Positions 1,266-41,345 are shown, numbered from the stretch's first letter. The stretch: 64,000 nucleotides of DNA from Pseudogymnoascus verrucosus (GCA_001662655.1 KV460240.1); one strand, 5' to 3'. Numbers and translations are program-made. The notes: generated by a model from the sequence alone, not told the origin.

Positions 1266-2161
1266 GTGTGGAGTAACTGTATGAATGATGTCGACAGGTT
1301 GTGGGTGACGAGACGGGAGTGTGTTTTTGTTAAACACCATGTTTTGATTTACTTTGCTTGCTGACAGTCAGATTGGGGAGCACAAGTCGATGTATGGTCG
1401 GCTTGGGAGGGATCAATCGATCATTGCTTGTGAGTTGAGGATGATTACTCGCTCGTTTTATACATATGTTTCATTTGTTGGCGCGGCGAGTTGGGAAGCG
1501 TGTATTATTGGGGAGAGCGGGATTGAGTCTGGCGTCAGCTGACAGCGTGTATTATTGAATGATTATTAGTGAAAGAATTGACTGAATGGAACAATTGAAA
1601 ACAAGTTTAGCTATGGAGTGAATGCTGAATGAAGACAAATATATATCAAAAGCAAAAGGGTTTCCCATATTGTAATATGACATTAAGATGAAAGATGACT
1701 TGGCATGATAATGCCTGGACTGTTCTGCCGTCGATAGCCCCCCCTGCCAGATCTGTATGTACCCTTGTACCGCCACATTGCATACCACGCCTTAATCCCT
1801 GTCCCCTCTCCTTAAACCTTTTCCCGACACGATTCTTCCAGACCACCGTCCTCTGAAGTTCAACCAGGCTACAGAGTATCGTCGTCGTCGTCGAGTATAT
1901 TGCCTGCACTGGAGTATTTTGCATATTGCATCTCCCCCACGATCGTTTTCACCGAGACAACTCGAGCAACAATCCGATACCCCGAGACAACACCGACCGA
2001 ATTCGAATTGCGCGCGAACTGCTGGTTTCCGTCATAATCAACGTGGAACCTTGCCCTTGGAACTGACGGCCTCTGAGGACGACATATGATGCTTTTAGAG
2101 TCCTCGACCTCTCTTTAGTGTCTTTTCAGGGCCACGCGCCAACGTTTGTCTCGCAGCCACT

Positions 2162-4138
2162 ATGCGCTTTTCCAAACCCTCGTTCCTGCCCTTCGCGAAG
2201 AGCTCCAGAAAGGCAAACATAATCACCGTCTTCCGCCATGCTCGCCGGAACCCACGCGACTTCGTCAGCCGCTTGTGGTGCCCTCGAACTATCGCGAAAT
2301 CGCTGGTCTTCCTTTCCGGTCTCGTCGTTATCGGTACGGCCATCGCCGAAATCCTACTCTATATCCGCACAGGGAAGAACAGCCGTATAGGCACTACGGT
2401 CATCAATCCGTTCATACCGCTCGCGCGTCCCAGTGTCCAAATACATCAGGGCATCTACAGAGGCGGCACCGCCAAGACTGGCCATGTCTTTGTCGAAAGA
2501 TTCCTCGGTATTCCATATGCACAGACGACGGGTGGATACAACAGGTTTATGCCGCCGGTCAAGATGATGGCAGGGATGACAAAACATGATGCGAGATATT
2601 GGGGCCACAAGTGCTGGGGAGGTCCAGACGGACCTGACCAGAGATCGGGAGATGATTGCTTGAACATCAATATTTGGCGGACACGAGGCGTGAAGGAAAA
2701 CCAGAATGTGCCAGTTGTTGTTTATTTTCACAGCGGATCATTTAATTTTGGGAGCGGTGCCGAAAGGGACATCGCTAGTTTTGTGGCATGGAGCGTGGAT
2801 CCAATCATTGGTATCTCGGTGAACTATCGAGTTGGTGCGTTGGGCTTCTTGAGCTCCAATCTTACTGCCGAGGAGGGCATTTTGAATCTCGGTTTGAAGG
2901 ATCAGGCAGCTGCCCTAGAGTGGGTGCAAGAAAACATCCGCATGTTTGGCGGAAACAAGGATCGAGTCACCATCTGGGGAAGCTCAGCAGGTGCACATTC
3001 CGTAAGTTACTTCTAGACTACCATTGATCGTCATGAGTGCGAGTCCTCTGAACTCTACGATCGTTTGATTGCTCAAACTAACATTACCCAGGTTGGCCAC
3101 CACCTCATGAAGATTGACGTCCCCGCACACTTTCAGGGAGCTATTATGGAATCTGGCGCTCCAACAGCTCGCGCCGTCTATCCATATAACCATCCCCTCC
3201 ACGAGGAGCAGTATAAAAGGTTTCTCGAGCTTACCGGCACCGCTGATATCCCCGACGAGTCAAAGATGACACATCTTCGCTCCATCGATATAGAGACAAT
3301 TGTCGCTGCCTCAGAGTCAGTTTTCCAGCAATACTCCGCATCTCTGCGCTGGCCTTTCCAACCTGTTATCGATGGACCCGGAGGCATGATCCCATGCGCA
3401 CCCCTCGAGAGCTGGAAAGCACGAGCGTATCACAAAGTCCCGATTCTGACCGGCTTCAACACCAACGAGGGCAGCATGTTCGTGGATACCGCCGTCGACG
3501 ATCCAAAGGAGTTCGACGAGTTCTTCCAGACACTGATCCCAAATTTTACCGAGAAGGACATGAGAGAGCTGAATGAGCTTTACCCAGATCCCTCAAAGTC
3601 ACCCGAGAGCAAGTATACCGAAGATCGCCCTGGTGTTGGCAAGCAGTACAAGCGTCTCGCGCGCGCGTACGGCGACTACGCTTATATTGCGCCAGTACGA
3701 CACACTGCCCACTTCGCGAGCGCATTGGATAGGCCCGATGATGCGGCGGTGTGGATGTACCAGTTCGACGTGAACCAAACGGTGATCCGCGGTTCGAACC
3801 ATGGCGACCAGGGAGAATACGTGGTGTACTCGCCCAGTGTGAGAAAACTGCCGTGGAGCAGGCATGGCGCGATTGGCGAGCAGATGCATGGTTATTGGAC
3901 TAGCTTTGTGATATCTGGCGATGTGAATGAAGTCAAGAAGGGTCGGGTTAAGAACCGCAGCACCTGGGCTCAGTATGGAAAGAGAGGAAGCAGCGCTAAG
4001 ATGGTGTTTGGAGAGCATAATAACCAGCGAGCCGGAGGGAAGGATGAGGGTGCCTTGACGGAGAACCGACCGGATCTTTGGGGTGATGCAGAGGGAGATT
4101 TCTGGTGGATGAGGACGATAATGTCGGAGAGGATATGA
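2162..4138 (+). CDS. Carboxylesterase type B / lipase (alpha/beta hydrolase), 2 exons
   Basis: Motifs FLGIPYA, DCLNINIW, NYRVGALGFL, NLGLKDQ, WGSSAG (nucleophile), TGFNTNEG and GSNHGD. GT-AG intron 3002-3091 joins ORFs 2162..3016 and 3065..4138. Confidence 0.92.
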
Positions 4139-13496: not shown

Positions 13497-14778
13497 TGCC
13501 AAGCTATTCGCTGTCGAGCGCTCTCACGGCGCTGTCCGTCGTGGTGCCTTGAGCATGTTCTCGGGGGTTCTCACTTGCAGATTCCAGAGTATGCAACTTC
13601 TCGTTCTAATCTAGAAGTGGAATAGCCCTGTCCCTGGTAAACTCTCATCCCACGTCCTCGGCAACTGCAGCGCTGCTGTACGTATGCGCAACGCGCGCGA
13701 CAGAGACAGCCCAGCCACACCTGTCGAACGCGTTCGTGGCTACGGCGGCGACATTGTGGCGTCGGTGCCTGGCGGGATGGGCGGCTGGGAGGGGATAGTA
13801 CAGGGATAGCCCGGGGAGGGAGTTGCAGTGACAGGAGGTTGACGGGTGGATAGTTGGTGCGCTGGGGTGGTTTTTTTTAGTAGTATCGTGAGCTTCATTT
13901 GTGGTCTTTGACTTCGATTTAAATATAGTTGTATGTTCGTGATCAAAGTCAGTGACGAAGGGGGAAGAACGATGGGTGTAGTCCAGATTCACGAGATAGA
14001 AAGGCTATACTATATCGAGAATAACTGTAAAGTGTTCGTTTGCTCCTCCTCCAGTTCCAAAAACCCTTCATCTACATGTCTCTCCTCCCCTTCCTTTCTC
14101 AACTATATGTCCACACTCCACGGTATCATCTCACAAAAGAAGTTTCCTCCATCTCTCTCCTTCCACCAAAACATATCTCACTCCAAAGATCCACAACCAC
14201 CACTATATCATCCTTCCTCCAAACTCATCCCCCATCCGCAGTTCCATTCCCATTAGTGCCTCCACCATTGCGGTTGCGGTCAGCCAATTGTGGCTGACTT
14301 CTTGGACGAGGGTGGCTCCACATTTTCGGTATTAGTCATCAGCACACTATTCCAGATTAGGGATTTTAACCTCAGGAATCACGCGGACCTCATATACTGA
14401 CACAGGAAGCACGTGATTGTATATATTTGGGTGAGTTGCCCATCCCAGCCAAGCTCCACGATTACCGCATCAACCCACCAGTTAAATACCCATCCTAACC
14501 TTACCTTGCTCAAATGTTTTGCAGAATGCCATTTGCATAACTTTCTACCTTCCGAATTTATATTTGGCTTTCATTCGAGGTTCAAAATGGTCAACCGAAG
14601 CCTCCTATGCAAGTTCGACGTGGCTAATGCACCGCCAACGAGTCAACTCTGTCGAGCGGCACAGAACTCAGCCTCGTCTAGCTAAATTACAACGACATGT
14701 TCCGTTGTCTAGATTTGAATACTACTTACTGTTATACTTTTCCCTTTCGTGTAGGATAATGAGCCACTTAATATCACA

Positions 14779-17700
14779 ATGAGCTTTGGTTTCAGTCTAG
14801 GCGACTTTATTGCAGTAATTGAGCTTGCTAACAAGGTCCGGAAATAGTTTGTCGACGCGCCGAGTCAATTCAGGGATATTTCCGATGAGTACGAACTCTT
14901 GTTAATGACAAAGTGATGCTAACTATTTATAATTTGATAGATTTAGAAGCCTCTCAATTATCCTTCAAGACGTCGAAGTCCTATTAGAACGGGAGCTCAA
15001 CAACGAACAGAAGAAAGAGCTCCAAGAGATCTCAAACGGTTGTCGAAACGTTCTCGAGAAGCTAGAACACATACTTGACAAGTATGGCGAGCTGTAGCTA
15101 GGGTCTAAGGGCGTCGGCAGAACTATGAGGAGAGTGTGGAAGAGGCTTAAATGGGAGCCGGACGATATACGTGATTTGCGGAGTCGTATCGTTGTAAACG
15201 TTACCTTGTTAAATACGTTCTAGGGAAAACTTGCTAGGTGATTGCGAATTATCCCCTACATTTATGTATTCTAACTAAAAGTGTTCAGTCAAACCTCCCT
15301 AGCGACGAAAGGAGCTGTGGACCGCTTAAATGAACGCCAAGATGACCGAGAGCATCGCGACGAGCGGCAGACTATGCTCGACTGGCTTTCTGCAATACAC
15401 TATGCTCCTTAGCAGAACGACTTTATCAGACGGCGACAGGTAGGGACCGGACGATGGCTTTTAGAATCTATAGAGCTTAAAGAGTTGGTAACGACGAGCA
15501 AAACATTGTTCTGCCTAGGCATTCCCGGAGCTGGAAAGACAATTCTTACATCCATCGTAGTCGAAGAGCTTGCTACTCGCTTCCAAAACGACGCGAGCAT
15601 TGGCATTGCGTATGTTTATTGTAACTTCCGGCGGCAACACGAGCAGAAGGCCGAAGACCTCCTCGCGAGTCTGCTAAAGCAGCTAACTTAAGGACAATCT
15701 CCCCTCCCAGATAGTGTGAAATTTCTCTATGAGAGCCACAAGGACAAGCGGACACGACCACCATTCGATGAAATTTCAAGAACTCTCTAGTCCGTGGCTG
15801 CTATATATTCAAGGGTCTTTATCGTCGTCGATGCCCTTAATGAATGTAAAGTATCTGATGGCTGCCGAATAAAATTCCTATTATACATTGTTAGCCTCTA
15901 TGCAAACTGCCAAGCAAGCCTCTTTGTAACTTTAAGATTTATTCTAGAAATCATGGACAAATTCAACGAATGTATGCAATTAGAGATCCGGGCGAGCGAT
16001 GAGGATGTACAGAGATACCTAGATGGTTAAATGTTGCAGCTGCCTAGCTGCGTGCTTCGCAGTCCGGAGCTCTAGGATGAAATAAAGGCCGATATTATAA
16101 AGGCGGTTGATGGGATGTACGTGACTGCTTATATTCTCGGCGAATAACGCTTACTTCTCGCAGGTTCTTACTTGCACAGCTTCATCTTGATTCATTAAAA
16201 GGGAAAAAATCCCTAAAAGCTATCCGTAACGCTTTAAGAAAGCTCCCAACTGGATCCGAGCCATATGACAACGCATACAAGGACGCTATGGAGAGAATTG
16301 GAGGCCAGCTTGTAGACGACGAAGAGCTTGCGAAGCAGGTTCTCTCATGGACTACCTGTGCAAAGAGGCCCTTGACTTCGTCTGAACTTGAGCACGCCCT
16401 TGCTGTTGAGATTGGGGAGTCGCAACTTGACACAGAGAATCTTTGTCGAGTAGAAGACATGGTCTCTGTATGTGCTGGGTTAGTCAGTCGATGGGGAAAG
16501 CGGGAATATCCGGTTAGTCCACTACACTGCACAAGATTACTTCGAGCGAACGCAAAAATGTTGGTTCCCCGAAGCAGGGACGGACATTGCGAACACCTGC
16601 GTTACCTATCTCTCATTCGATTCTTTTAAAAGCGGCCTTTGCCCTACAGATGAAGAGTTTGAGGCACGACTACAGGAGAACGCAATTTATGACTATACAG
16701 CTCGAAATTAGGGACACCACGCTCGCAAGGCTCCTTTAACAAGTCAAGTGATAATGAAGTTTCTCGAGAGCGACTCTAAGGTGAAAGCCTCCATTTAAGA
16801 GCTTATAGCTACTAAGCAGCACCTATCACATGCCAATTACAGCCAAGAAGTTCCAAGAGATATAACAGGGTCTCATTTAGCAGCGCACCTTAGACTCGAG
16901 GAAGCTATAAAGGAGCTGTTTATACGTGGTCATAAAATAAACCTCAAAGACTCTAACCTTCGAACGCCGCTGTTGTGGGCGGCAAGGAGTGGGCATGACG
17001 CCGTTATCGCGCTTTTTTCTACCTAGAACAGTTTTGGCATCAACTTAAAGGACAATTCAGGCCGAACTCCGTTGTCGCATACTGCAGGAAACGGACACGA
17101 ATCCGCCGTCAAGCTCCTTCTTAATATAGATAGCGTTGAACCAGACTCAAGGGACAATGTTAGCCGGACGCCACTGTCCAGAGCTGCAATGTTTAGACAC
17201 GCAGCGGTTATTAAGTTGCTTCTTGCCTAGGACGGTGTCGACCCGGACGCTAAAGATGATGTCTCTAAGACGCCGCTGGTATTAGCTGCGATGTACGGCC
17301 ACGACGCCGTGGTCAAACTGCTGCTTGATACTGGCAGAGTCGTTCCCGAATTCAAAGACGCGAAATATGGCCGAACGCCGCTATCGTGGGTAGCAGAGAA
17401 AGGGAATGCGGCCGCTGTAGAGACGCTGCTTAGAATAGATAGCATTAATCCGGACTCGAAGTCCGCTGGATCTTAGAACAAGAACTGGACGCTACTGTCT
17501 TACGCAACAGAAAGGGGGCATCAGACTGTAGTTGAGCTCCTGATGGCGACCGGCCGTGTTAACCTGGATTCCAAAGATAACGACGGCCGGACCCCTCTGT
17601 CATATGCGATCGCAGAAGCCCAAACAGAAACAATTCATTGCCTACTAAGATACGGCGCCAGCCCCACAACCACTGATACCCAGCTGAAGGGCCTTTTACA

Positions 17701-19174
17701 CCACGCGATCGTTAATGTGAATTGCACACTTGACATCGTGAAGAAACTTCTGATGCTCGGTGCGCCAACGGATTTAGTGGATATTGACAGTATGACAGCG
17801 TTACATCACACGGTTAGATTCAATCGACAGGATATAGCTGAATTGCTTATCCAAAATGGGGTGCCAGTGGACTTTGCCATCCACAGAAAGGCATGGATGG
17901 CGAAGAATCATGAGCAAAGGACTATATATGAGCCGCGCGGTGGACACGAAATACTATGTGTCGATTGAGACTGCACTCGAGGACTTACGCCTTTACATTA
18001 TGCAGCGTTGATTGGAAATTGCCAAATGGTACAGTTCTTCCTCGATCACGGTGCCGACCCAAATGCCATCTCTTGTTGTAGAGAAACACCTCTCCATCTC
18101 ACACTATACGAGAATGTACACGCGCCAACATACAACGATGATTGGACACAAGGCTGCTGGAGAGCTGAAGTTTGGTTAGATTTGATTGACCCTGAAGATG
18201 ACGACGCCGATGACATATACGCCAATATTATCATGCAACGAATTGCCGTGGTCGACGCGCTGCTTCATCATCCAAAAGTTGATCTTAAGATACAAGACAG
18301 CGAAGGGGCATCAGCACTGCATTGTGTTCCATACGGGAAGCTAAAATTTGATGCTATAGTTAGTATGTTGATCGAAAAAGGTGCTGAAGTTTCTGCTTGG
18401 AACTCGAAGAAACAATGTCCATTGCATCTTGCCTGTCGACGTGGCGACTACGCTTCTGTGCAAGTACTTCTCACTCACGGTGCTGACATATTATATGTCG
18501 ATCAAGATGGACTAAACGCGTTCCACTATGCCGCAACAAGTAAAAGCGCGGAGACATTGTCGCGTATTTTTGAAGCATCCGATACGAATAGTCTCAATAT
18601 ATATACATTAAGAGACGAAGCGGGAAGAAATGCATTGCATCATATGTTGGCTCACGGCGCTAATATTGAGGAAGTCCGACTGCTTCTAGATAAGGGAGTT
18701 GATGTTAAGGACAGAGATGTTAACGGAAATTCGCCTCTGGCCTCCTACCTAATCAACTCATGCTTCTACATCGATGTTGGCATTTGTAGACTATTGCTAC
18801 AGAGCGGGTCAGACGCCTTGGCCATAAATGACCAAGGGTTGGCCCTTGCACACCTATCGGCCAGTTGTTCGAAATTAAATATCGCAGTTTTGGAGGCTCT
18901 AATGGATTTCGGCGTGGACATAGAAAAGCTGGACATGAAGGGGAGGTCACTTTTACATCACACTGCACTCGAGGGTTCCCTTACAGAGACAGCTCTAGCA
19001 TTTCTTTTCGATAAAACAAAGCTTCGCTCGGATGATAGAGACTCTTCTGGAAAAACACCATTGCAATACGCAGTTGAGCAGGCTCGGAAAAAGCGCCATC
19101 GGAGTGCCTTCGATTCGCAGAGGTGGTCGAGGAGTTTGGAAATCTTCATGAGGAATGAAGCTGTCGCGGGATGA
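14779..19174 (+). pseudogene. NLR-like STAND gene (SesA/HeLo-like N-terminus, NACHT, long ankyrin array) inactivated by RIP-like mutations
   Basis: Starts MSFGFSLGDFIAVIELA; Walker A GIPGAGKT; Walker [21 protein letters not shown]; many GRTPL ankyrin repeats. At least a dozen in-frame TAG/TAA stops (e.g. 14845, 15095, 15410, 16709, 17228, 17474), a frameshift near 16486, and TGA at 17966. Confidence 0.88.
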
Positions 19175-19776: not shown

Positions 19777-19947
19777 CTGCTGGTCACCACCCGGTGATAC
19801 CATCAGAAAATGGAGGTGCGTGGTCAACAGCTATTGATATCACCACCCGGTGATACCAGCAGAAAATTGAGGTGTGTGGTCAACAGCTGTACAGCAAAGT
19901 GCCACGGTAAGTAAACCACTACGACCACGTAAATATAACATGGCGCT
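19777..19947 (+). repeat. Dispersed repeat copy A with an internal tandem duplication of ~56 bp period
   Basis: tcaccacccggtgatacca.cagaaaat.gaggtg.gtggtcaacagct starts at 19784 and again at 19840; homologous to 25547-25662. Confidence 0.9.
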
Positions 19948-20142
19948 ATAGCAGCAGTGAAATATGTAATTAGATTCAGAATGAACTGCCCTCGAACCAG
20001 CAACCAGAAAAGGGCCAAATGGCGAACTGAGTGCAGGGAGAAGTTAGCCAATCACATTCATGAGTGTACTCGGTATATAATAAGCCATATCTAATTGTCA
20101 TTTGACCAGACTCCCAACTTGGGCTTACTATTCTCCCAACCG

Positions 20143-20697
20143 ATGTCAAGCTTATAACAAACCAAGAGGACCTGTATTAATGGAGTATTTTAACAGCTAG
20201 AAAGGCGGCGCTGTTCAATAAACAACTAAGCAAACTCAACTAGGGCCTATATCGACCTGTGCAACAGAGTAGGGGTACAATTTAAGGCTGTGCTAGCAGA
20301 AGGTGCTACAAATTACGGACAGGAAACGCGACTAACTACAACAACTAAAGCTTTTGACGCATTAGAGAAGAGCAGAGAATATCCTTCCGAAGATATAATT
20401 ACATTTCAACTTAGCGCTAAAGAATGGTGTGAGATATCGCGCGTAGAATTGGCTATAAGAGAGGCTTTAGAGATTGAGCTGATGAGAATTAAAGGAGAGA
20501 ATGCGGAGCTGTTAACTGAGATGAAAGCTCTTCGCCAATTAGAAGCAACGCGGAGCCAGGATCTTGAAAAATCATGGGAGATACTACTGATAACATCGCA
20601 CATTCTCGAAGAGCAAGCATCAAGGGCGTCTGAAGACTCACAGAAAATTGCACACGCCGCAGCTTACCTAAAGCTGGGAAGCAATCCACGTACGTAG
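20143..20697 (+). pseudogene. Degenerate hypothetical coiled-coil protein gene
   Basis: ATG at 20143 is in frame with ORF 20290..20697 but interrupted by three TAA codons (consistent with CAA>TAA). TATA-like motif near 20074. Confidence 0.4.
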
Positions 20698-22254
20698 TCT
20701 CGTCCGAAACGGAACCCTTGGCGCCATACTCATCTACCATTTAGAGGTAGCGAGACCCGTACGATAGTGGATTGGCGGCTGCTTGCGGCTCTCGTTCTAT
20801 CAATTCAAATGAGTTACGCGTCAACGTGCTGGTAACTATCTCCTGTGACCTCGTGGAATGGCCAGCCAAATTAGCGGGCAATCCTTGACGCATGGGTAAT
20901 TACGTCTTCCTGAAACCAGTTGTCACGTGCCATGCATATTGCAGTTTAGCCACAAAAATGATGACATAAGCGAAATTACATCGTAAGTTAACTTAGTTAA
21001 GTTAGTCATTATAGGACGTCCGGGGTCGTTACAGTAAGAAGCGAAATCGGTGTCAGGTCCGAACATTAAAATGATCCCCTGGGTCAACAGATTACGGAGG
21101 GCTGTTTTCCCCGGCGGTGGAAAATGGAAGGAAGAAGATAGGCACCTCTACTCTTAGATGATGGAGCGTCAGGAGCAGCCGTGGCAAATCAAACATGGGA
21201 AATGTAAATAGACACCGACTGGGCGTCGCCCCCCCACAATGTACTGCCAGGTGATGGAGCGGGCCGTCTTGACTTCCCGCAGTACAAGTGGGTCTAATGT
21301 TTGTGACCATCGGATGATCCCGCATTATGTAGTCGGCCTCAGGACATTAACAATGTGAGTGGTTCAGACAAGGGTTGCTGCTTGCACAAAGGATGGTACT
21401 TCATGAAACTCGAGCGCATTCACAACTTCCTGCTACTACCCCACAACATCTTCTTTCTTACCTCTACACAAAGTCGAAAAGTCGTGACAATCACAGCAAT
21501 ACTATCCAAACCGCTCCCTCGAGACCGTAGTAAGGCTGTTAGTCGAGAAAAGACGTTTTAACATGGACAATATGTTCATAACGTACACATACGTACATGC
21601 CTTCTAGGCCGTGGTGACGAGTCAATGTGCTTTGTGAGTTATCTTCTTCACCTCCGCACTGGTAGTAACGAAACGAAGCAGGTTATTTTGAGACACCGAC
21701 CATCACCGTCCACTTACCATTATGATGCGTCACGTTCATGCATGTTTCAGAATATCACTCTCATCAACATGTGCTGGCTAAGAAGAACGAAAGCCCAACG
21801 CAGGTCGTGAGTATGGTTATCTTGAAGCTGACCACTGAAAAGAAAGTTTTCATGTAGTGATATGGAACAATATCGTTTTTGGGTGGACTTGAGGCGTTAA
21901 CCGTGCATATGCTCAGATGCGGCCGTCCGTAGCAGGAAATCTTCATGTGGCTGGCGGGCTGGAGTGGCGAGGTGATCTTCTGATTATCAGGGTCAGAGCA
22001 ATGCCCATTACATTTTGATAATTTTCAAACATGAAAATTTGATTATGGTATCGAGATATTTTTTCCGCAATTAGGTATATATAGGTTTGTCCCTTTAATG
22101 GAATTTCAAGCTATCCACAGCAGTCTACCTCAAGCCATTCTCACTTTACGATCCATTGCTCTCCCTCATCGGTTTTCTTCAGCACTTTTTAACATTTGCC
22201 TTCTTCCATCCACATCTACGTATTATCACCAACACTTCAAAGCCATTTCTCAGT

Positions 22255-22986
22255 ATGAAGTGTACCATTCTCAGCAATGGCAGGCTCGCCCTTTTCGCTC
22301 TCGCCATCACACAATTCTGCCCTATTCTAGCCCACCCTTCCCTAGAGAAGCGCGGTGTCCCCATCGCCATGGGAGCTGCCAAAACATACGGAGCAATCGC
22401 AGCCACGACTCTCACCAGTACAGGCAACACCCTCATCACCGGCGACTGCGGAACCTGCCCTGGAACATCAATCTCCGGCTTTCCCCCTGGAGTGTGTACC
22501 GGAACAACATCTGCGGGTGGAACCGCAGCTTGCGCCGCAGAAGCCGCTTGTCTTTCAGCATACAACAATGCTAGAGCTCTTGCCCCCACCGCAACAGCTC
22601 TCCCATCATCGGACCTCGCAGGTTTAACATTGGCTCCAGGCGTCTACAAATTCCCCGCGTCGGCAGCCACTAATTCGGCCACTCTCACACTTAACGGAGC
22701 TACGAACACCAAGGGCCAATTCATCTTCCTTATCGACACAACTTTTACAACTGCCGCTAGCTCCAAAGTCGTGTTAATCAATGGCGCACAAGCTTGCAAT
22801 GTTTATTTTATTGTTGGCTCATCTGCTACTATTGGAGGGGCAACTGCAATGAACGGAAATATACTGGCGTATACTTCTGTTGGTTTGAGCAATGCTGCGA
22901 GTAATAAGGGTACTCTCTGTGCACTCAATGGAGCTGTTACTTTGATCAACAACGCCCTCACTGCTCAGACTGTCTGCACATCATAA
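22255..22986 (+). CDS. Secreted ice-binding protein (DUF3494/IBP-1 fold), intronless, 243 aa
   Basis: Signal peptide plus LEKR Kex2-type site. DUF3494 motifs TGNTLITGD, PGTSISGFPPG, DLAGLTLAPGVY, VVLINGAQACNVYFIVGSSATIG and GNILA. Rich in Thr, Ala and Gly; TATA box near 22076. Confidence 0.9.
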   Translation: MKCTILSNGRLALFALAITQFCPILAHPSLEKRGVPIAMGAAKTYGAIAATTLTSTGNTLITGDCGTCPGTSISGFPPGVCTGTTSAGGTAACAAEAACLSAYNNARALAPTATALPSSDLAGLTLAPGVYKFPASAATNSATLTLNGATNTKGQFIFLIDTTFTTAASSKVVLINGAQACNVYFIVGSSATIGGATAMNGNILAYTSVGLSNAASNKGTLCALNGAVTLINNALTAQTVCTS

Positions 22987-23376
22987 ACTTTCGTGCTTGT
23001 TGCGATTTTCTTCCTGTTGTTTACCAAGATTTAATGTACTTTACTAGTTACAAATCAGATCACCACATGTATTCTAGGGAAGGAATTGAAAACCGTCTTT
23101 TGACTTCTCCCCTGAGCAACTGCACCAGTGCGGTATCAGTACGTTAAATTGAAGCACAAATGCTCGAAAGAGTGGTACTCAAGCTGGGTTTCCCGGGCAG
23201 ATACGTTTTTCGATAGGCTGGCATACTAAAAATAACTATTTACATGACAAGCCTGGGACTCGCGTTATGCGTAGATATACCGACTCTATAGTCTCTGTGA
23301 ACACTGTGGAAATCTGGCTCCGCTAAAGCCCTATCGACTCACTTTAAACGCTAATCTAGAGGCTGACCCCCTAGCA

Positions 23377-23745
23377 TCAGCCTGCCTTGTGCACTGAGAG
23401 ATGCGCCATCGCAGCTGATCCCAATGCTGTTATAGTTTCTCTCGTCTGGACGAGTTCATCTTCCGCGACTCCGAGCTCGTCCTTTGGAATCCACAGGACT
23501 GGGGGATCAGACGTAAGAGTTTCGTCTTGACAAGGATCTTGGAATATCTTTGTTGCAACGCGCATATCTTTGCCTTTACTTCCGGTTTGAGCCGTCAGCT
23601 GCTTGAAAATGGGTCGCGAGGATAGCTAATGTAATCTACTTCTATAATCTAACGAAAACTGAAACAATGCAGTGAAGGCCATAGTAACAATCATAATTAT
23701 CGCTTGTGCAGTGCATGTGGCATTGCCATCAGCATCGCGGATAAA
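23377..23745 (-). pseudogene. C-terminal fragment of a CSC1/PHM7 (OSCA/TMEM63, DUF221) channel gene
   Basis: Reads IRDADGNATCTAQAIIMIVTMAFTALFQ...*...DPPVLWIPKDELGVAEDEL. No upstream part of the gene is present, and there is an in-frame TAG. Confidence 0.65.
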
Positions 23746-24529
23746 TTGATTTTATGAGAAGTGCGATTTTCACGCTCACGACCTTCGCCTCTACTCTCGT
23801 GCAGGTCACTAGATTTATAAGCATGTTTGTGCTCTCTCCTTTAATTAGCAAATCTTCAAGGCAAAAGTGGACGAGAAGACAGAGCCTAGGGCTTCAAAAA
23901 TGGAGTACCTTTGTCCCAGTCTTCACAAATATGGCGTGCATAGGTATATTTTCTGTATTAGCCACTGTTGAGATAATACTAATTGCATAGGACTTATCTA
24001 TTCAGTCATCGCTCTTCTTATTTTAGTCTTCAGCATGATTTACTTTAGGGTCCTCTGGGTTCTATACCGGTACAACCCTGCTCCATCTCCTCCTTTCCTT
24101 CCGCTTAATGCTCCATGGCATCCCCCCACCCGCCCCCCACCTGCCCCCCTTCCTAAACCCAGCACCCAACGCCCGCCTCTCTTCGCTAAAAACAAGGGCA
24201 GATCAGCGAATTTGAAAATATCGAAGCAATATGCGTTTTCAAACTGCTTGTACGCCAAATACAATCTACTAATCCTGAAATCGAGTAGAAATACTAGATT
24301 TTGACCGTTTTAGGTCCGATATTCTAACTCCCGACAGCCATGTGGATTAAGCGAAAGATTTGTACGATGCGGGGTATAAAGCAGATGAGTTCCATTCGTA
24401 CATGGCCATATACAAAACCGTCCACGGCATTTGTAGAGAGTAGCGCAGCATCGTCGATAAGGGTGCTAACCTGATTCTATCATCTGTCTTCTGTGCACTT
24501 CCTTGTAGGAGGTAAGATTGTCTTTCTTT

Positions 24530-25546: not shown

Positions 25547-25662
25547 CTGCTGGTCACCACCCGGTGATACCAGCTGTTGACCACACACCTCAATTTTCTG
25601 CTGCAAGGTGCCACCACGCGTAAGTAAACCACCGCGCGACTACGTAAAAATAACATGGCGCT
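25547..25662 (+). repeat. Dispersed repeat copy B (direct orientation, internal 33 bp inverted relative to copy A)
   Basis: Shares ctgctggtcaccacccggtgatacca and gtaagtaaaccac...taacatggcgct with copy A. Confidence 0.9.
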
Positions 25663-26217
25663 GCTACGAGGTATACATACTGCAACTCCTGTCCTTCTTA
25701 CTCTCCTTTGCTCATTCCTCGTTAGCCTTTACGTCTCATTCCACTTCACCCCTTCTGCCTCACCTAGGACTACTTGATCTGTGCACCGCAGCCAAGGTTC
25801 ATGCCACGCCCATGTAAGAGCCCCATTAGTATTTCGAGTCCCCTAGCTTAACTAGTGCAAAAATTGAAGCACTTTTATTATTTTTCAGTTTAGAATAGCT
25901 CCGTTTGGTCTAAATGAATATACCTAGGAAACATATATTCACTATGCTAGCGGGGCTCTTAACCATACTCTTGCTGGTTAGTTACTACACATACACCTAT
26001 CATGACGGTAAGCACTAAAGACCGTTCTCCTAATTAATCGCGCTAACCGTGGTCTTGAGGGCTGACTCTAAAATCCTATTAACAAGGCTCTCTACTATTG
26101 CAACCATTCCCCTCAAAGATCTGGCAAAGTTGGAAAGACGACTCTGAACCCGAGAGGACAGCCGGCTTCCCGCACGAGGGAGATCCGCCACGCTGCAACG
26201 CACGCAGCCACCCCAAA

Positions 26218-26250
26218 ACCACCACCACCACCACCACCACCACCACCACC
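26218..26250 (+). repeat. (ACC)11 microsatellite
   Basis: Direct reading of the sequence. Confidence 0.95.
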
Positions 26251-26616
26251 AAACGAACAAACAACGAAAGAGAAAAAAATGTTCGACTTTGTACAACAAC
26301 AACATCCTTTCAAATCCCCTTCCCATATTTCCCATCCCTAGATGCCAAATGCCAATTGCAAATTCCCCCCTTATGCTCCATTAATGACGTTAAAAAACAT
26401 ATATAAAAAAAGGTGGGTGTAGAGTTTGTAAGAAGAAGGTAAAAAAGGCCTCAAGCTCCTCATTCGCAAAAAGATTATTAAACGCCGCGTCTCTCTTCGT
26501 TCTCCTCTTTCTGTCCTCGAGCGTAATCGTACTAATAACACGTCCGTCGTCCCCGTTGCTTTTTTGGCGAAACCACCACGCTGGCACACACCTCAGCCGT
26601 CGACATCATCCACGAC

Positions 26617-38828: not shown

Positions 38829-41345
38829 ATGTTGGCAGCATCGGGACGGCCACGCAAGGCCTGCAGCCAATGTAAGGGCCATAAGGTACTGACTGAACTT
38901 GTGAACTGAACTTGTGACCCTGGCACTTGCAACGCTTTACAAGCACCCTTTTCAAATCCAAATCACGAATAAACAGACTGATGTTAAGCAGGTCCGCTGT
39001 TCGGGTGATAAGCCGGTCTGCAGACGATGCTCGCGCCTAAGACACGCTTGCATCTATAGTGCCAAGAGTGTCAATAGTGTCAATGTCCCTCAGGTGGACG
39101 GAACGTCGAGTTTATTGCAAAATGCGCGCGTAACAGATACTCCTCCGACACCAGTATCTACTACCACCCCTAGTCGAGAAGAAGGCCATTCTACCTACCG
39201 AGGGAGTTATGGAGCAGAAACCACCAGAAACAAGTACCCGATTCCCCCATTGCTGTTGACATCACCCTCGCAAGATTACAATCTCGGGATTCCTGAATCG
39301 TTGGTTTCTAGCCTGATCGAAGTATACTACTCTGATGTGTACAATGCATCTCTGCTGTTGCATAAGCGCATGTTCTTAGAAGCAGTAGCTGCAGGTACAG
39401 CTCGTCCTCAAGTTGTTCTGAGTGTCTGCGCGATTGCGTCAATGTATGATTGAAAACTCTCAACTCTGGATAACATAGTTGACCTTTTTTATGTTCAGTT
39501 TCCATCTTGACTCCAAGAACCAGACTTCCCTCAAAGAACATGGATTCAGCACACAATGGGCCGAGCGTGCAGGCAAGCTTGCGTTCCAAGAAGTCGAAAG
39601 CCCGAACGAAGATAACATTGTGGCATTTATAAATCTAGCGCTTTTTTGGTACAGCCAGGGATCCTGGCGGAGGTCTTATATACATAAGGGTATTGAACCT
39701 GAACCCGTTTTCTTTAGTTTAAGGTGTTTTACTAACCATTTCAATCGACTTCAGGCAATGCTCTGCAGCTGGCACATCTCCTAGGATTTGGAACCGAAAG
39801 ACCTGACAAGGCGGGTTCCTTGGAATCAGAGATCCAGCGCCGTCGCTTCTGGGCATGTTATCTTATGAATTGCCACGCACCGGAGTCTATGTCCGTGCCA
39901 GAGATATCGAAGACGGCACAAAAGCTTAGACTTCCCTGGCGAGACGAAGATTTCGAAGCTGGGTTCTGTGCGGAGCCAGGGGTCTCCCTGGATTCTGGAC
40001 AAAGCAACGAAGGTATCTTCTGCGAATTGGTCAAGGCCATGACATATTGGTATGATCGATCGACCGGTAATGCATACCTGCTCTAGAGCTGACAATATCT
40101 AGGCGTGCGGTTTTTAACTTGATCAAATCACCTGAGTCTAGCATTAGCGCTAGAGTTTCTGACATCCATGCCCTCGATGCTCAAATAGCGGAATGGTGGT
40201 CTAAACTTCCTACTTCTCTTCACTTGACGCCTTCTAGCATCTCAGAAACGCCTCACAGTGTCCTGCCTAAACTCCTACTCATCCACACCGTCCATCACCA
40301 GTGTCTCTGTGCTCTACACTCCTCCATCGTTCCTCTTTTTTCTTGGGGCGCAAGTGATAACACATGGTTGACTGCACGAAATCTCTCAGCACAAATAGCT
40401 TTCGAACACGCTTGCGAGGCTTCTACACTTTTCGAAGCGATCCTTACGAATTCCAACGAATCTAGTGCCATCCCAAGTTTTATTGCATATGCAGCCTACT
40501 GTGGATGCGCGATTCAGATTCCTTTTATGTGGTGCTCCGAACCATCAGTCAGGGAGAAGGCACATGCAAACGTCAGGACGAATATCAGAATGATCCATCT
40601 TTCGGCGAAGTACTGGAAGTTTAGCGCGTTGTTGGTAGGGTTTCTCTCTCCCATTTTCCGCCGCAAGTCGGACATGATTCAGGACCGAATGATAACATTC
40701 GAGTAGGAAATCCACTTTCAGTATCTCTACAAAATGCACGCGAAAGATCCGGTTCCTCTCGAAAACGAACCCAAACATCTCGCCGAGGGGAAATTAAAGG
40801 GATTTAGAATCAGCGCATCTCATGCGCGTGATTCCATATTGGGGCATAACAGCATTTTGTGGAGCAGGGGTGATGGTTATGCAAAATCAGGCGAAGAGGT
40901 TACCGATCTGGGGATTCAAGATGAGAATAGTCTTCAACCTTCCGGCTTAACGGGCCAAGACTGTAAGTGGAGTCTCTTACCAAGAATTGCGAGAGCAATC
41001 AAAACTAATCGTACCTCTTTTGCCACCGTAGTTTCTAGGACTATCACCCCACAGAGCCAGTGTCGTCCTCCCTCGCGGGCACCTATAGCCGAAGAAGATC
41101 AGCCACTCACATCTGCGGATCCCAATCCGACGACCATTGTTCAAGAGGACCTCTATGCTCAGCCATCTCCAACTCTGGATTTCTTCCACCCGTTTCTCGA
41201 CCCCGAGATTCTGGATGGTTTCCCCGACGGCGAGGTCTTGGATTTCTCGCAATATGGGACGATTCCAGCGAGCTTTGACTTTTTCGACGGTTGGGCTCTT
41301 GGTGCTGGAGAGGTTCCGGAGACTAGAGGGAACGAGATGGGGTAA
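38829..41345 (+). CDS. Zn(II)2Cys6 transcription factor with fungal-specific TF domain, multi-exon
   Basis: MLAASGRPRKACSQCKGHK/VRCSGDKPVCRRCSRLRHAC zinc cluster split by an intron; EIQRRRFWACY middle homology region; acidic C-terminus. Confidence 0.88.

Follow-up and report, generated by a model that had tools for sequence, protein, structure and literature searches.

In the DUF3494 family, the closest described systems are EfcIBP (PDB 6eio), a bacterial ice-binding protein (IBP) from an Antarctic ciliate consortium, and AnpIBP1a (PDB 7bwx and 7bwy) from Antarctomyces psychrotrophicus, a fungus that NCBI places in the Thelebolaceae, the same family as Pseudogymnoascus. More distant fungal members come from basidiomycetes, among them TisAFP6, TisAFP7 and TisAFP8 (3vn3, 7ddb and 5b5h) and LeIBP (3uyu). 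Pseudogymnoascus itself is common in permafrost and polar soils. A proposal on the origin of AnpIBP is reportedly due to Arai et al. in 2019. In the accessible part of the AnpIBP study, the authors propose that the protein is of bacterial origin (PMC7277481). Moreover, the accessible part of a recent survey states that the eukaryotic DUF3494 proteins known so far all come from icy habitats (Raymond 2024, PMC11645318).

Here we describe a DUF3494 gene in a stretch of 64,000 nucleotides from Pseudogymnoascus verrucosus (GCA_001662655.1 KV460240.1), hereafter the window. The features discussed are collected in Table 1. We read the product as a secreted beta-solenoid with four disulfides that stems from one old bacterial transfer and is predicted to bind ice. 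Taken as a whole, we consider this statement only a little better supported than its negation, and we are confident of the identity and evolutionary placing of the gene.

Table 1. Features of the DUF3494 locus and its surroundings, in window coordinates.
Feature	Position	Strand	Basis or remark
DUF3494 / Ice_binding coding sequence, complete, intronless (first base of ATG to last base of TAA)	22255..22986	+	frame, Pfam, relatives
Signal peptide, putative, residues 1-26	22255..22332	+	sequence only
Propeptide, putative, HPSLEKR with dibasic KR, Kex2-type site	22333..22353	+	sequence
DUF3494 beta-solenoid domain, residues 48-235	22396..22959	+	Pfam, AlphaFold2, Foldseek
TATA box, possible, TATATATA	22076..22083	+	~175 nt 5′ of ATG; from the letters alone
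Decayed NLR-type gene (NPHP3_N/NACHT, winged-helix, ankyrin repeats)	15413..19174	+	profile matches, stops
Repeat zone	19777..20694	+	49-nt tandem pair; short stretches recur at 25547-25662
155-aa frame, multi-copy family	20230..20694	+	74 hits
RSN1_7TM / PHM7 channel gene, three fragments, both strands	23380..24301	.	profile matches

The gene product and its putative binding face

The gene specifies a small DUF3494 (ice-binding) protein. Its frame has 243 codons and no internal stop, and the product matches Pfam PF11999 (Ice_binding, formerly DUF3494) with an E-value of 2.8e-48 and 164.8 bits, far above the curated cut-off of 28.7 bits. Residues 48-235 correspond to positions 2-207 of the 208 in the profile, which makes the protein a member of the family. 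Since a single unbroken frame covers the whole profile, the domain is free of introns. A first-pass annotation of this DNA had called the gene intact and intronless and had counted eight Cys in the mature part. Both statements hold, and all eight Cys (residues 65, 68, 81, 93, 99, 181, 222 and 241) lie after LEKR33.

Named Pseudogymnoascus genomes encode proteins of 243-244 aa with 85-93% identity to the window protein. The length is exactly 243 aa in 13 of 17 aligned copies from the genus, and all eight Cys are kept by 16 of the 17. An identical protein is already present in NCBI and UniRef, the nearest named copies differ from the window protein at 1 and 4 residues, and one orthologue in UniRef bears the title 'Ice-binding protein'. 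Several Pseudogymnoascus strains hold at least two copies of the gene; a second copy was looked for within the window and not found. The named members of the four Pseudogymnoascus clusters come from about a dozen other strains, none of which is labelled P. destructans. Separately, one small metagenome record group contains at least seven distinct intronless relatives (loci L087-L095) with a mutual dS of 0.15-0.40, which suggests either many paralogues in a single fungus or several close species.

The N-terminus carries the basic residues K2 and R10 and a hydrophobic run at residues 11-26 that ends in ILA26, and the structural model has pLDDT values below 51 across residues 1-30. Within the propeptide, conservation among 81 aligned relatives is high at P28 (77/81), E31 (62/81) and R33 (64/81) and lower at K32 (43/81). 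The dibasic KR is found in 9 of the 17 Pseudogymnoascus copies, with NR, ER or QR in the remainder, and across DUF3494 relatives the site is common but not universal. This pattern predicts secretion and Kex2 cleavage of the precursor, which in the window copy would be trimmed after KR33.

The pairing of the Cys was inferred from the co-occurrence of Cys columns across the 81 sequences and not from model coordinates. Cys 181 and 241 occur together in 69 sequences and are both missing from 3, with no sequence holding only one of them. Cys 68 and 93 are both present in 51, singly in 1 and absent from 29; the corresponding counts are 59, 5 and 16 for Cys 65 and 81, and 73, 4 and 4 for Cys 99 and 222. 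The mature protein would thus be locked by four disulfides, 65-81, 68-93, 99-222 and 181-241. Only the 181-241 pair is found in the nearest relatives outside the Cys-rich group, and the predicted pairs 65-81, 68-93 and 99-222 are marks of the fungal branch.

An AlphaFold2 model built on the 81-sequence alignment (mean pLDDT 90.6, pTM 0.84) shows a long helix at residues 90-107 and is otherwise made of strands, that is, a solenoid plus helix. When the model was searched against the PDB with Foldseek, all 31 matches with E ≤ 0.001 were DUF3494 ice-binding proteins. The top matches were 6eio and 7bwx (together with 7bwy), at 38% identity, an rmsd of 1.6-1.8 Å and a target TM of 0.85-0.95. A phmmer search against the solved chains ranked them in the same order as the structural comparison, with EfcIBP at 122.8 bits, AnpIBP1a at 110, IBPv at 88, TisAFP6 at 48.2 and LeIBP at 40.1.

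The ice-binding residues of AnpIBP are given strand by strand in the accessible part of PMC7277481. From these, the putative binding face was transferred to the window protein by sequence alignment; it comprises T51-T56 (TTLTST), T71-S74 (TSIS), A135-S141 (ASAATNS), T162-A167 (TTFTTA), S189-G194 (SSATIG), T207-S212 (TSVGLS) and G226-I231 (GAVTLI). Alignment with the AnpIBP face, the sole basis here, maps 27 outward residues of the window protein, 26 of which are T, S, A or G. In the 81 relatives, the same 27 columns are 88.5% T/S/A/G compared with 51% over the whole domain, and the putative face is also conserved in relatives from fungi other than ice specialists. The alignment suggests that the face is a conserved binding surface whose ligand is most likely ice. 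The putative flat face of Thr, Ser, Ala and Gly would bind ice, or ordered water on ice, and such binding would slow recrystallisation around hyphae in frozen soil. We put real ice-binding activity of the window protein at somewhat better than an even chance.

The principal alternative keeps the same protein and the same history and has the Thr/Ser-rich face bind a surface or ligand other than ice, for instance the cell wall, the surface of a host or a substrate, or a mineral; 'ice-binding' would in that case be no more than the family's name. The face may bind something other than ice because relatives are present in fungi that are not known from icy places, the branch being found in insect pathogens, in root- and plant-associated fungi and in lichens. 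Most of the near relatives among bacteria belong to ordinary soil groups (Streptomyces, Micromonospora, Chloroflexota and Acidobacteriota), and the putative face is equally conserved in all 81 relatives, whether from cold soil or not. Moreover, the accessible part of PMC11645318 (Raymond 2024) states that, where bacteria live in places that do not freeze, their DUF3494 proteins may have other surfaces as targets. However, the two nearest solved structures are proven ice binders, and the face consists nearly entirely of the small residues T, S, A and G, as known ice-binding sites do. Many host fungi of the branch also overwinter in freezing soils, which counts against another ligand. We therefore regard a non-ice ligand as a minority reading, though one of real weight, and retain ice as the predicted ligand in what follows.

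Relatives and descent of the gene

Among the best 120 relatives in a large protein collection, 31 carry an organism name and every one of these belongs to an ascomycete genus. They fall in the Leotiomycetes, Sordariomycetes, Geoglossomycetes and Lecanoromycetes, with one Dothideomycete, and include Cordyceps, Akanthomyces, Tolypocladium and Monosporascus. Lineages were checked for seven named relatives, all of which lie within leotiomyceta; the remaining named fungal relatives presumably belong to the classes given here. Among the matches listed, ascomycetes from five classes are the nearest, at 55-72% identity, with up to 72% in ascomycetes of other classes. A scan of metagenomes for near-identical loci likewise gave a best match of 72%. 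A recent arrival of the gene was considered and rejected, the closest relatives (55-72%) being ascomycete and not bacterial.

A single-protein scan of bacterial and archaeal genomes returned 439 pattern matches, none of which was confirmed. With an alignment as query, bacterial genomes yielded 596 relatives, of which the best 80 were retained. Those 80 loci share 39-49% identity with the window protein over residues ~36-240 and come mostly from Actinomycetota (Streptomyces, Kitasatospora, Micromonospora and Thermoleophilia), Chloroflexota, Verrucomicrobiota, Acidobacteriota, Planctomycetota and Pseudomonadota. The NGAQACNV stretch is part of the consensus of the nearest non-Cys-rich relatives. 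The earlier suggestion that the protein is closer to bacterial than to basidiomycete IBPs was borne out, both by structure-based identity (38% versus 26-27%) and by phmmer score (122.8 versus 48.2 and 40.1 bits).

Two trees were built, both by quick searches with SH-aLRT as the only support measure, and AnpIBP, basidiomycete and algal sequences were not included in either. The first holds 119 rows, namely 40 named fungal and 59 bacterial sequences and 20 representatives without a name; a mis-modelled Pseudogymnoascus protein of 288 aa and two bacterial rows containing stops were omitted, and each bacterial genus or class was capped at four rows. The second holds 100 rows, 10 of them distant Bacteroidota domains that serve as root. 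Every named fungal row falls within a single clade (SH-aLRT 97), itself part of a larger ascomycete clade (95-96). The 13 Pseudogymnoascus rows share one sub-clade (100), and separate groups, each with a support of 99, unite the Sordariomycetes, the Geoglossomycetes and the Lecanoromycetes. The backbone of the first tree is without resolution and contains an odd pairing of Dothideomycete and Leotiomycete rows (97). The wider clade (95) also takes in rows without a name, three of which were identified as Lignoscripta, Neodidymelliopsis and a Peltigera cluster, which are ascomycetes (lichen or Dothideomycete). No named bacterial row falls inside the fungal clade in either tree. Since the named fungal rows make up one clade with class-level groups, any transfer predates the split of the classes.

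In the second tree, the fungal clade (96) forms the tip of a ladder whose other rungs are bacterial sister groups (SH-aLRT 78-96), and is thus nested among bacteria. Verrucomicrobiota with a planctomycete group come first on this ladder, followed by Acidobacteriota and then others. The nearest sister rows of the fungal clade (P0185, P0189, P0191 and P0200) carry no organism label, and the outgroup is not one-sided, 4 of the 10 Bacteroidota rows having fallen on the wrong side. Among named sequences, the Cys-rich branch is confined to ascomycetes and is placed among soil-bacterial DUF3494 proteins.

These data point to one entry from a bacterium, which would have been into an early ancestor of the leotiomyceta ascomycetes, and would have been followed by vertical descent with duplications, losses and now and then the gain of an intron. 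Introns occur at four distinct positions in environmental relatives (loci L097-099, L100, L101 and L102), and two further loci (L084 and L085) span 807 nt and contain internal stops; both observations fit a long residence in fungi. The first-pass annotation had taken the gene to be an acquisition of this island or lineage, a view contradicted by the single old ascomycete clade (97). It had named as counterevidence a gene tree that follows the fungal tree together with conserved synteny. That pattern was found in part.

If there had been no transfer at all, DUF3494 would have to be ancestral in fungi or eukaryotes and to have been lost very many times. The unrooted split between fungal and bacterial rows (support 95) gives no direction alone and would be compatible with this. 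However, the tree rooted on Bacteroidota nests the fungal clade many nodes deep among bacteria, all named members lie within leotiomyceta, and the basidiomycete IBPs are far more distant than the bacterial proteins, which is a misfit with a single vertical fungal gene. We consider such an ancestral origin highly improbable, and hold to one old transfer from bacteria.

The genomic surroundings

We scanned 36 stop-to-stop frames between 13.5 and 26.4 kb for intact genes. The NLR-type relic lies in pieces over several stop-separated frames, and its ankyrin part is interrupted at 17228 (TAG), 17474 (TAG) and 17966 (TGA). The 155-aa frame belongs to a family of 74 proteins, of which the organism-labelled hits are all Pseudogymnoascus; many occur per genome, many on short contigs, and a Pfam domain is on record for only 1 of the 74, with none in the window frame. 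This frame is a genus-specific repeat and probably part of an unclassified repeat element. On the other side of the gene, PHM7_ext is matched at 23380-23625 on the minus strand and RSN1_7TM at 23745-24301 on the plus strand. The other frames of the scan had no family match. The frame scan agrees with the earlier claim that the stretch from ~14.3 to 26 kb holds no clearly intact gene besides the DUF3494 gene; an additional gene that is an orphan or rich in introns is conceivable. The description of the gene's neighbours as decayed is confirmed by the NLR pseudogene, the channel fragments and the repeats. Given these relics and repeats and the low gene content around the window gene, we describe the stretch as gene-poor and decayed. 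Core genes lie on both sides: ribosomal L3-like and GDE1-type genes on the left, and on the right several genes that include a helicase and one with a CUE domain. The G+C content is 0.44-0.50 over 14-26 kb compared with 0.52-0.58 in most flanks, and that of the gene-bearing bin (22001-23000) is 0.479, like its surroundings.

Two explanations of the stretch were tried and rejected. Repeat-induced point mutation (RIP) does not account for the decay, since no 2-kb bin of 14-24 kb shows the RIP pattern (TpA/ApT 0.78-0.96; (CpA+TpG)/(ApC+GpT) 1.08-1.37). A mobile unit bracketed by long repeats was likewise discarded; the only matches, between 19.78-19.95 and 25.55-25.66 kb, are of 26-49 nt and are too short.

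Elsewhere in the window, two same-phase frames at 2099-4138 (+) match positions 2-199 and 200-495 of a carboxylesterase profile and are separated by an in-frame stop at 3014-3016; the interruption could reflect pseudogenisation, an error of sequencing or an intron of very small size. At 40071-41345 (+), same-phase frames of 211 and 212 aa with one stop between them and no Pfam match may be another interrupted gene. Within 26030-26380 (-), a TGG/CCA simple repeat at 26207-26260 gives Trp codons and hence a frame reading WWWWWWWWWWW.

Four assemblies with four organism labels (X2, X3, X4 and X6) were aligned on 13-28 kb; they had been chosen as holders of the gene and are therefore a biased sample. 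All four have depth in 30 of 30 bins across 13-28 kb, at ~97-99.9% identity. Identity to the window exceeds 99.8% in X2. In X6 nearly the whole stretch is tiled at ~97-98.5%, with a 4693-nt contig across 20463-25147 that holds the gene and both flanks, and in X3 a 5450-nt contig runs across the NLR relic. Synteny around the gene is clearly common to the related assemblies. The earlier claim of an accessory island found no support in presence or absence, all four of these preselected holders having the 13-28 kb stretch.

Depth is 3-20 times baseline at the repeats of 19.5-20.5 kb and 23-26 kb, including the 19777-20694 zone in X2-X4, and joints with a strand switch and raised depth are found near 23380-24301 in X2 and X4. 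Over the gene itself, depth is 2-2.7 times baseline in X2, X3 and X4, which argues for extra gene copies in these three. Two contigs of 830 nt in X3 have the same ends (22235-23064) and align to the window without gaps, with 7 and 103 differences respectively; an upstream contig at ~22036-22163 has a depth of 36.8 compared with ~18. The contig pair could represent two gene versions sharing identical flanks, which would be paralogues whose flanks have been homogenised or else alleles that diverged and occur together in a mixed sample. A contig of X4 joins 13903 directly to 15735, so that 13904-15734, a segment of 1.8 kb in which the NLR relic begins, is either absent there or was gained by the window.

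Divergence is 3-6 times lower in the coding sequence than in its flanks, whose rate the NLR relic shares. In X3 the contig over the coding sequence has 7 differences in 830 bases, compared with 242 in 10497 for the flanks (Fisher p 0.003), and in X4 it has 2 in 455, compared with 173 in 5965 (Fisher p 0.0005). Across 24 pairs of environmental relatives with dS < 0.41, dN/dS is 0.21-0.51. Pairs with the window gene have a dS above 1.5 or undefined; because the best metagenome match reaches only 72% identity, codon tests against the window gene are saturated. The low divergence, together with the conserved length and Cys pattern, supports purifying selection on the coding sequence, and the earlier claim that the gene is kept under selection is thereby sustained by divergence, dN/dS and Cys retention. 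Gene conversion among copies could account for part of the low coding divergence.

One further reading has the gene pass recently from a bacterium into a fungal accessory island that varies between strains, and persist there as the island decays. It would suit the lower G+C of 14-26 kb (0.44-0.50), the repeats and broken genes and the lack of introns, but it is the least probable reading of all and can be dismissed, given a top bacterial identity of 49% versus 72% in ascomycetes of other classes, the single clade of fungal rows, the presence of the stretch in 4/4 of the preselected assemblies, a gene-bin G+C (0.479) like that of the surroundings and core genes on both sides. The gene is instead one copy from a long-established ascomycete family with bacterial ancestors, situated in a repeat-rich, gene-poor stretch, and not a fresh import.

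Significance and comparison with known systems

In the openly accessible literature we found no report on the Cys-rich branch or on a Pseudogymnoascus IBP. PMC12387347 and PMC11953729 name ice-binding proteins only in a title in the reference list, the latter also using 'antifreeze' once, in its introduction and in connection with fatty acids, and PMC11898892 makes no mention of ice-binding proteins. Tentatively, the Cys-rich branch, with its putative propeptide and four predicted disulfides, may be a so far uncharacterised subfamily of secreted DUF3494 proteins, spread over at least five ascomycete classes and including insect pathogens, lichens and root fungi, none of them an ice specialist. 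If this is true, secreted ice-binding proteins are perhaps general, and overlooked, in overwintering temperate and boreal filamentous fungi; alternatively, the branch may have turned its ice-binding face to another extracellular target. The ascomycete host list sits badly with the statement, in the accessible part of PMC11645318, that all eukaryotic members are from icy habitats, and each of these two readings would conflict with it. The window protein offers a defined target, being a compact, probably disulfide-stabilised and putatively secreted DUF3494 protein with a putative ice face very rich in Thr. An assay of the branch would tell whether 'ice-binding' annotations in temperate ascomycetes carry meaning.

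AnpIBP1a, from the same family of fungi, resembles the window protein in its DUF3494 fold (rmsd 1.6-1.8 Å over ~206 columns, target TM 0.93-0.95), in being a secreted fungal protein, secretion of the window protein being predicted, and in the shared SSATxG strand of the face. It differs in sequence, with only 38% identity and no Cys at the positions aligned to 65 and 68, and the face of the window protein is richer in Thr, with TTLTST where AnpIBP1a has QGVANA. Since 38% is below the 40-49% identity to soil bacteria, AnpIBP1a probably represents a lineage separate from that of the window gene. A two-donor proposal cited in the accessible part of PMC7277481 is compatible with such a separate lineage.

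Of the solved chains, EfcIBP is the top match (E 1.5e-34, rmsd 1.6 Å), and both proteins contain the stretch GDxGxxPGTSIxGFPPG. EfcIBP, however, is without the Cys pairs 65-81, 68-93 and 99-222 and without a Kex2-type propeptide. The basidiomycete proteins TisAFP6/7/8 and LeIBP are alike in family, fold and secreted fungal nature, but at 26-29% identity and E-values of 1e-8 to 1e-12 they belong to a clearly different branch of the family. Lastly, the single- and multi-domain DUF3494 proteins of soil bacteria share 39-49% identity and an NGAQACNV-type strand with the window protein, from which they differ in often having tandem domains or long C-terminal fusions. Set against these systems, the window protein adds one member to an established family, and its evolutionary history is likewise of a familiar kind.
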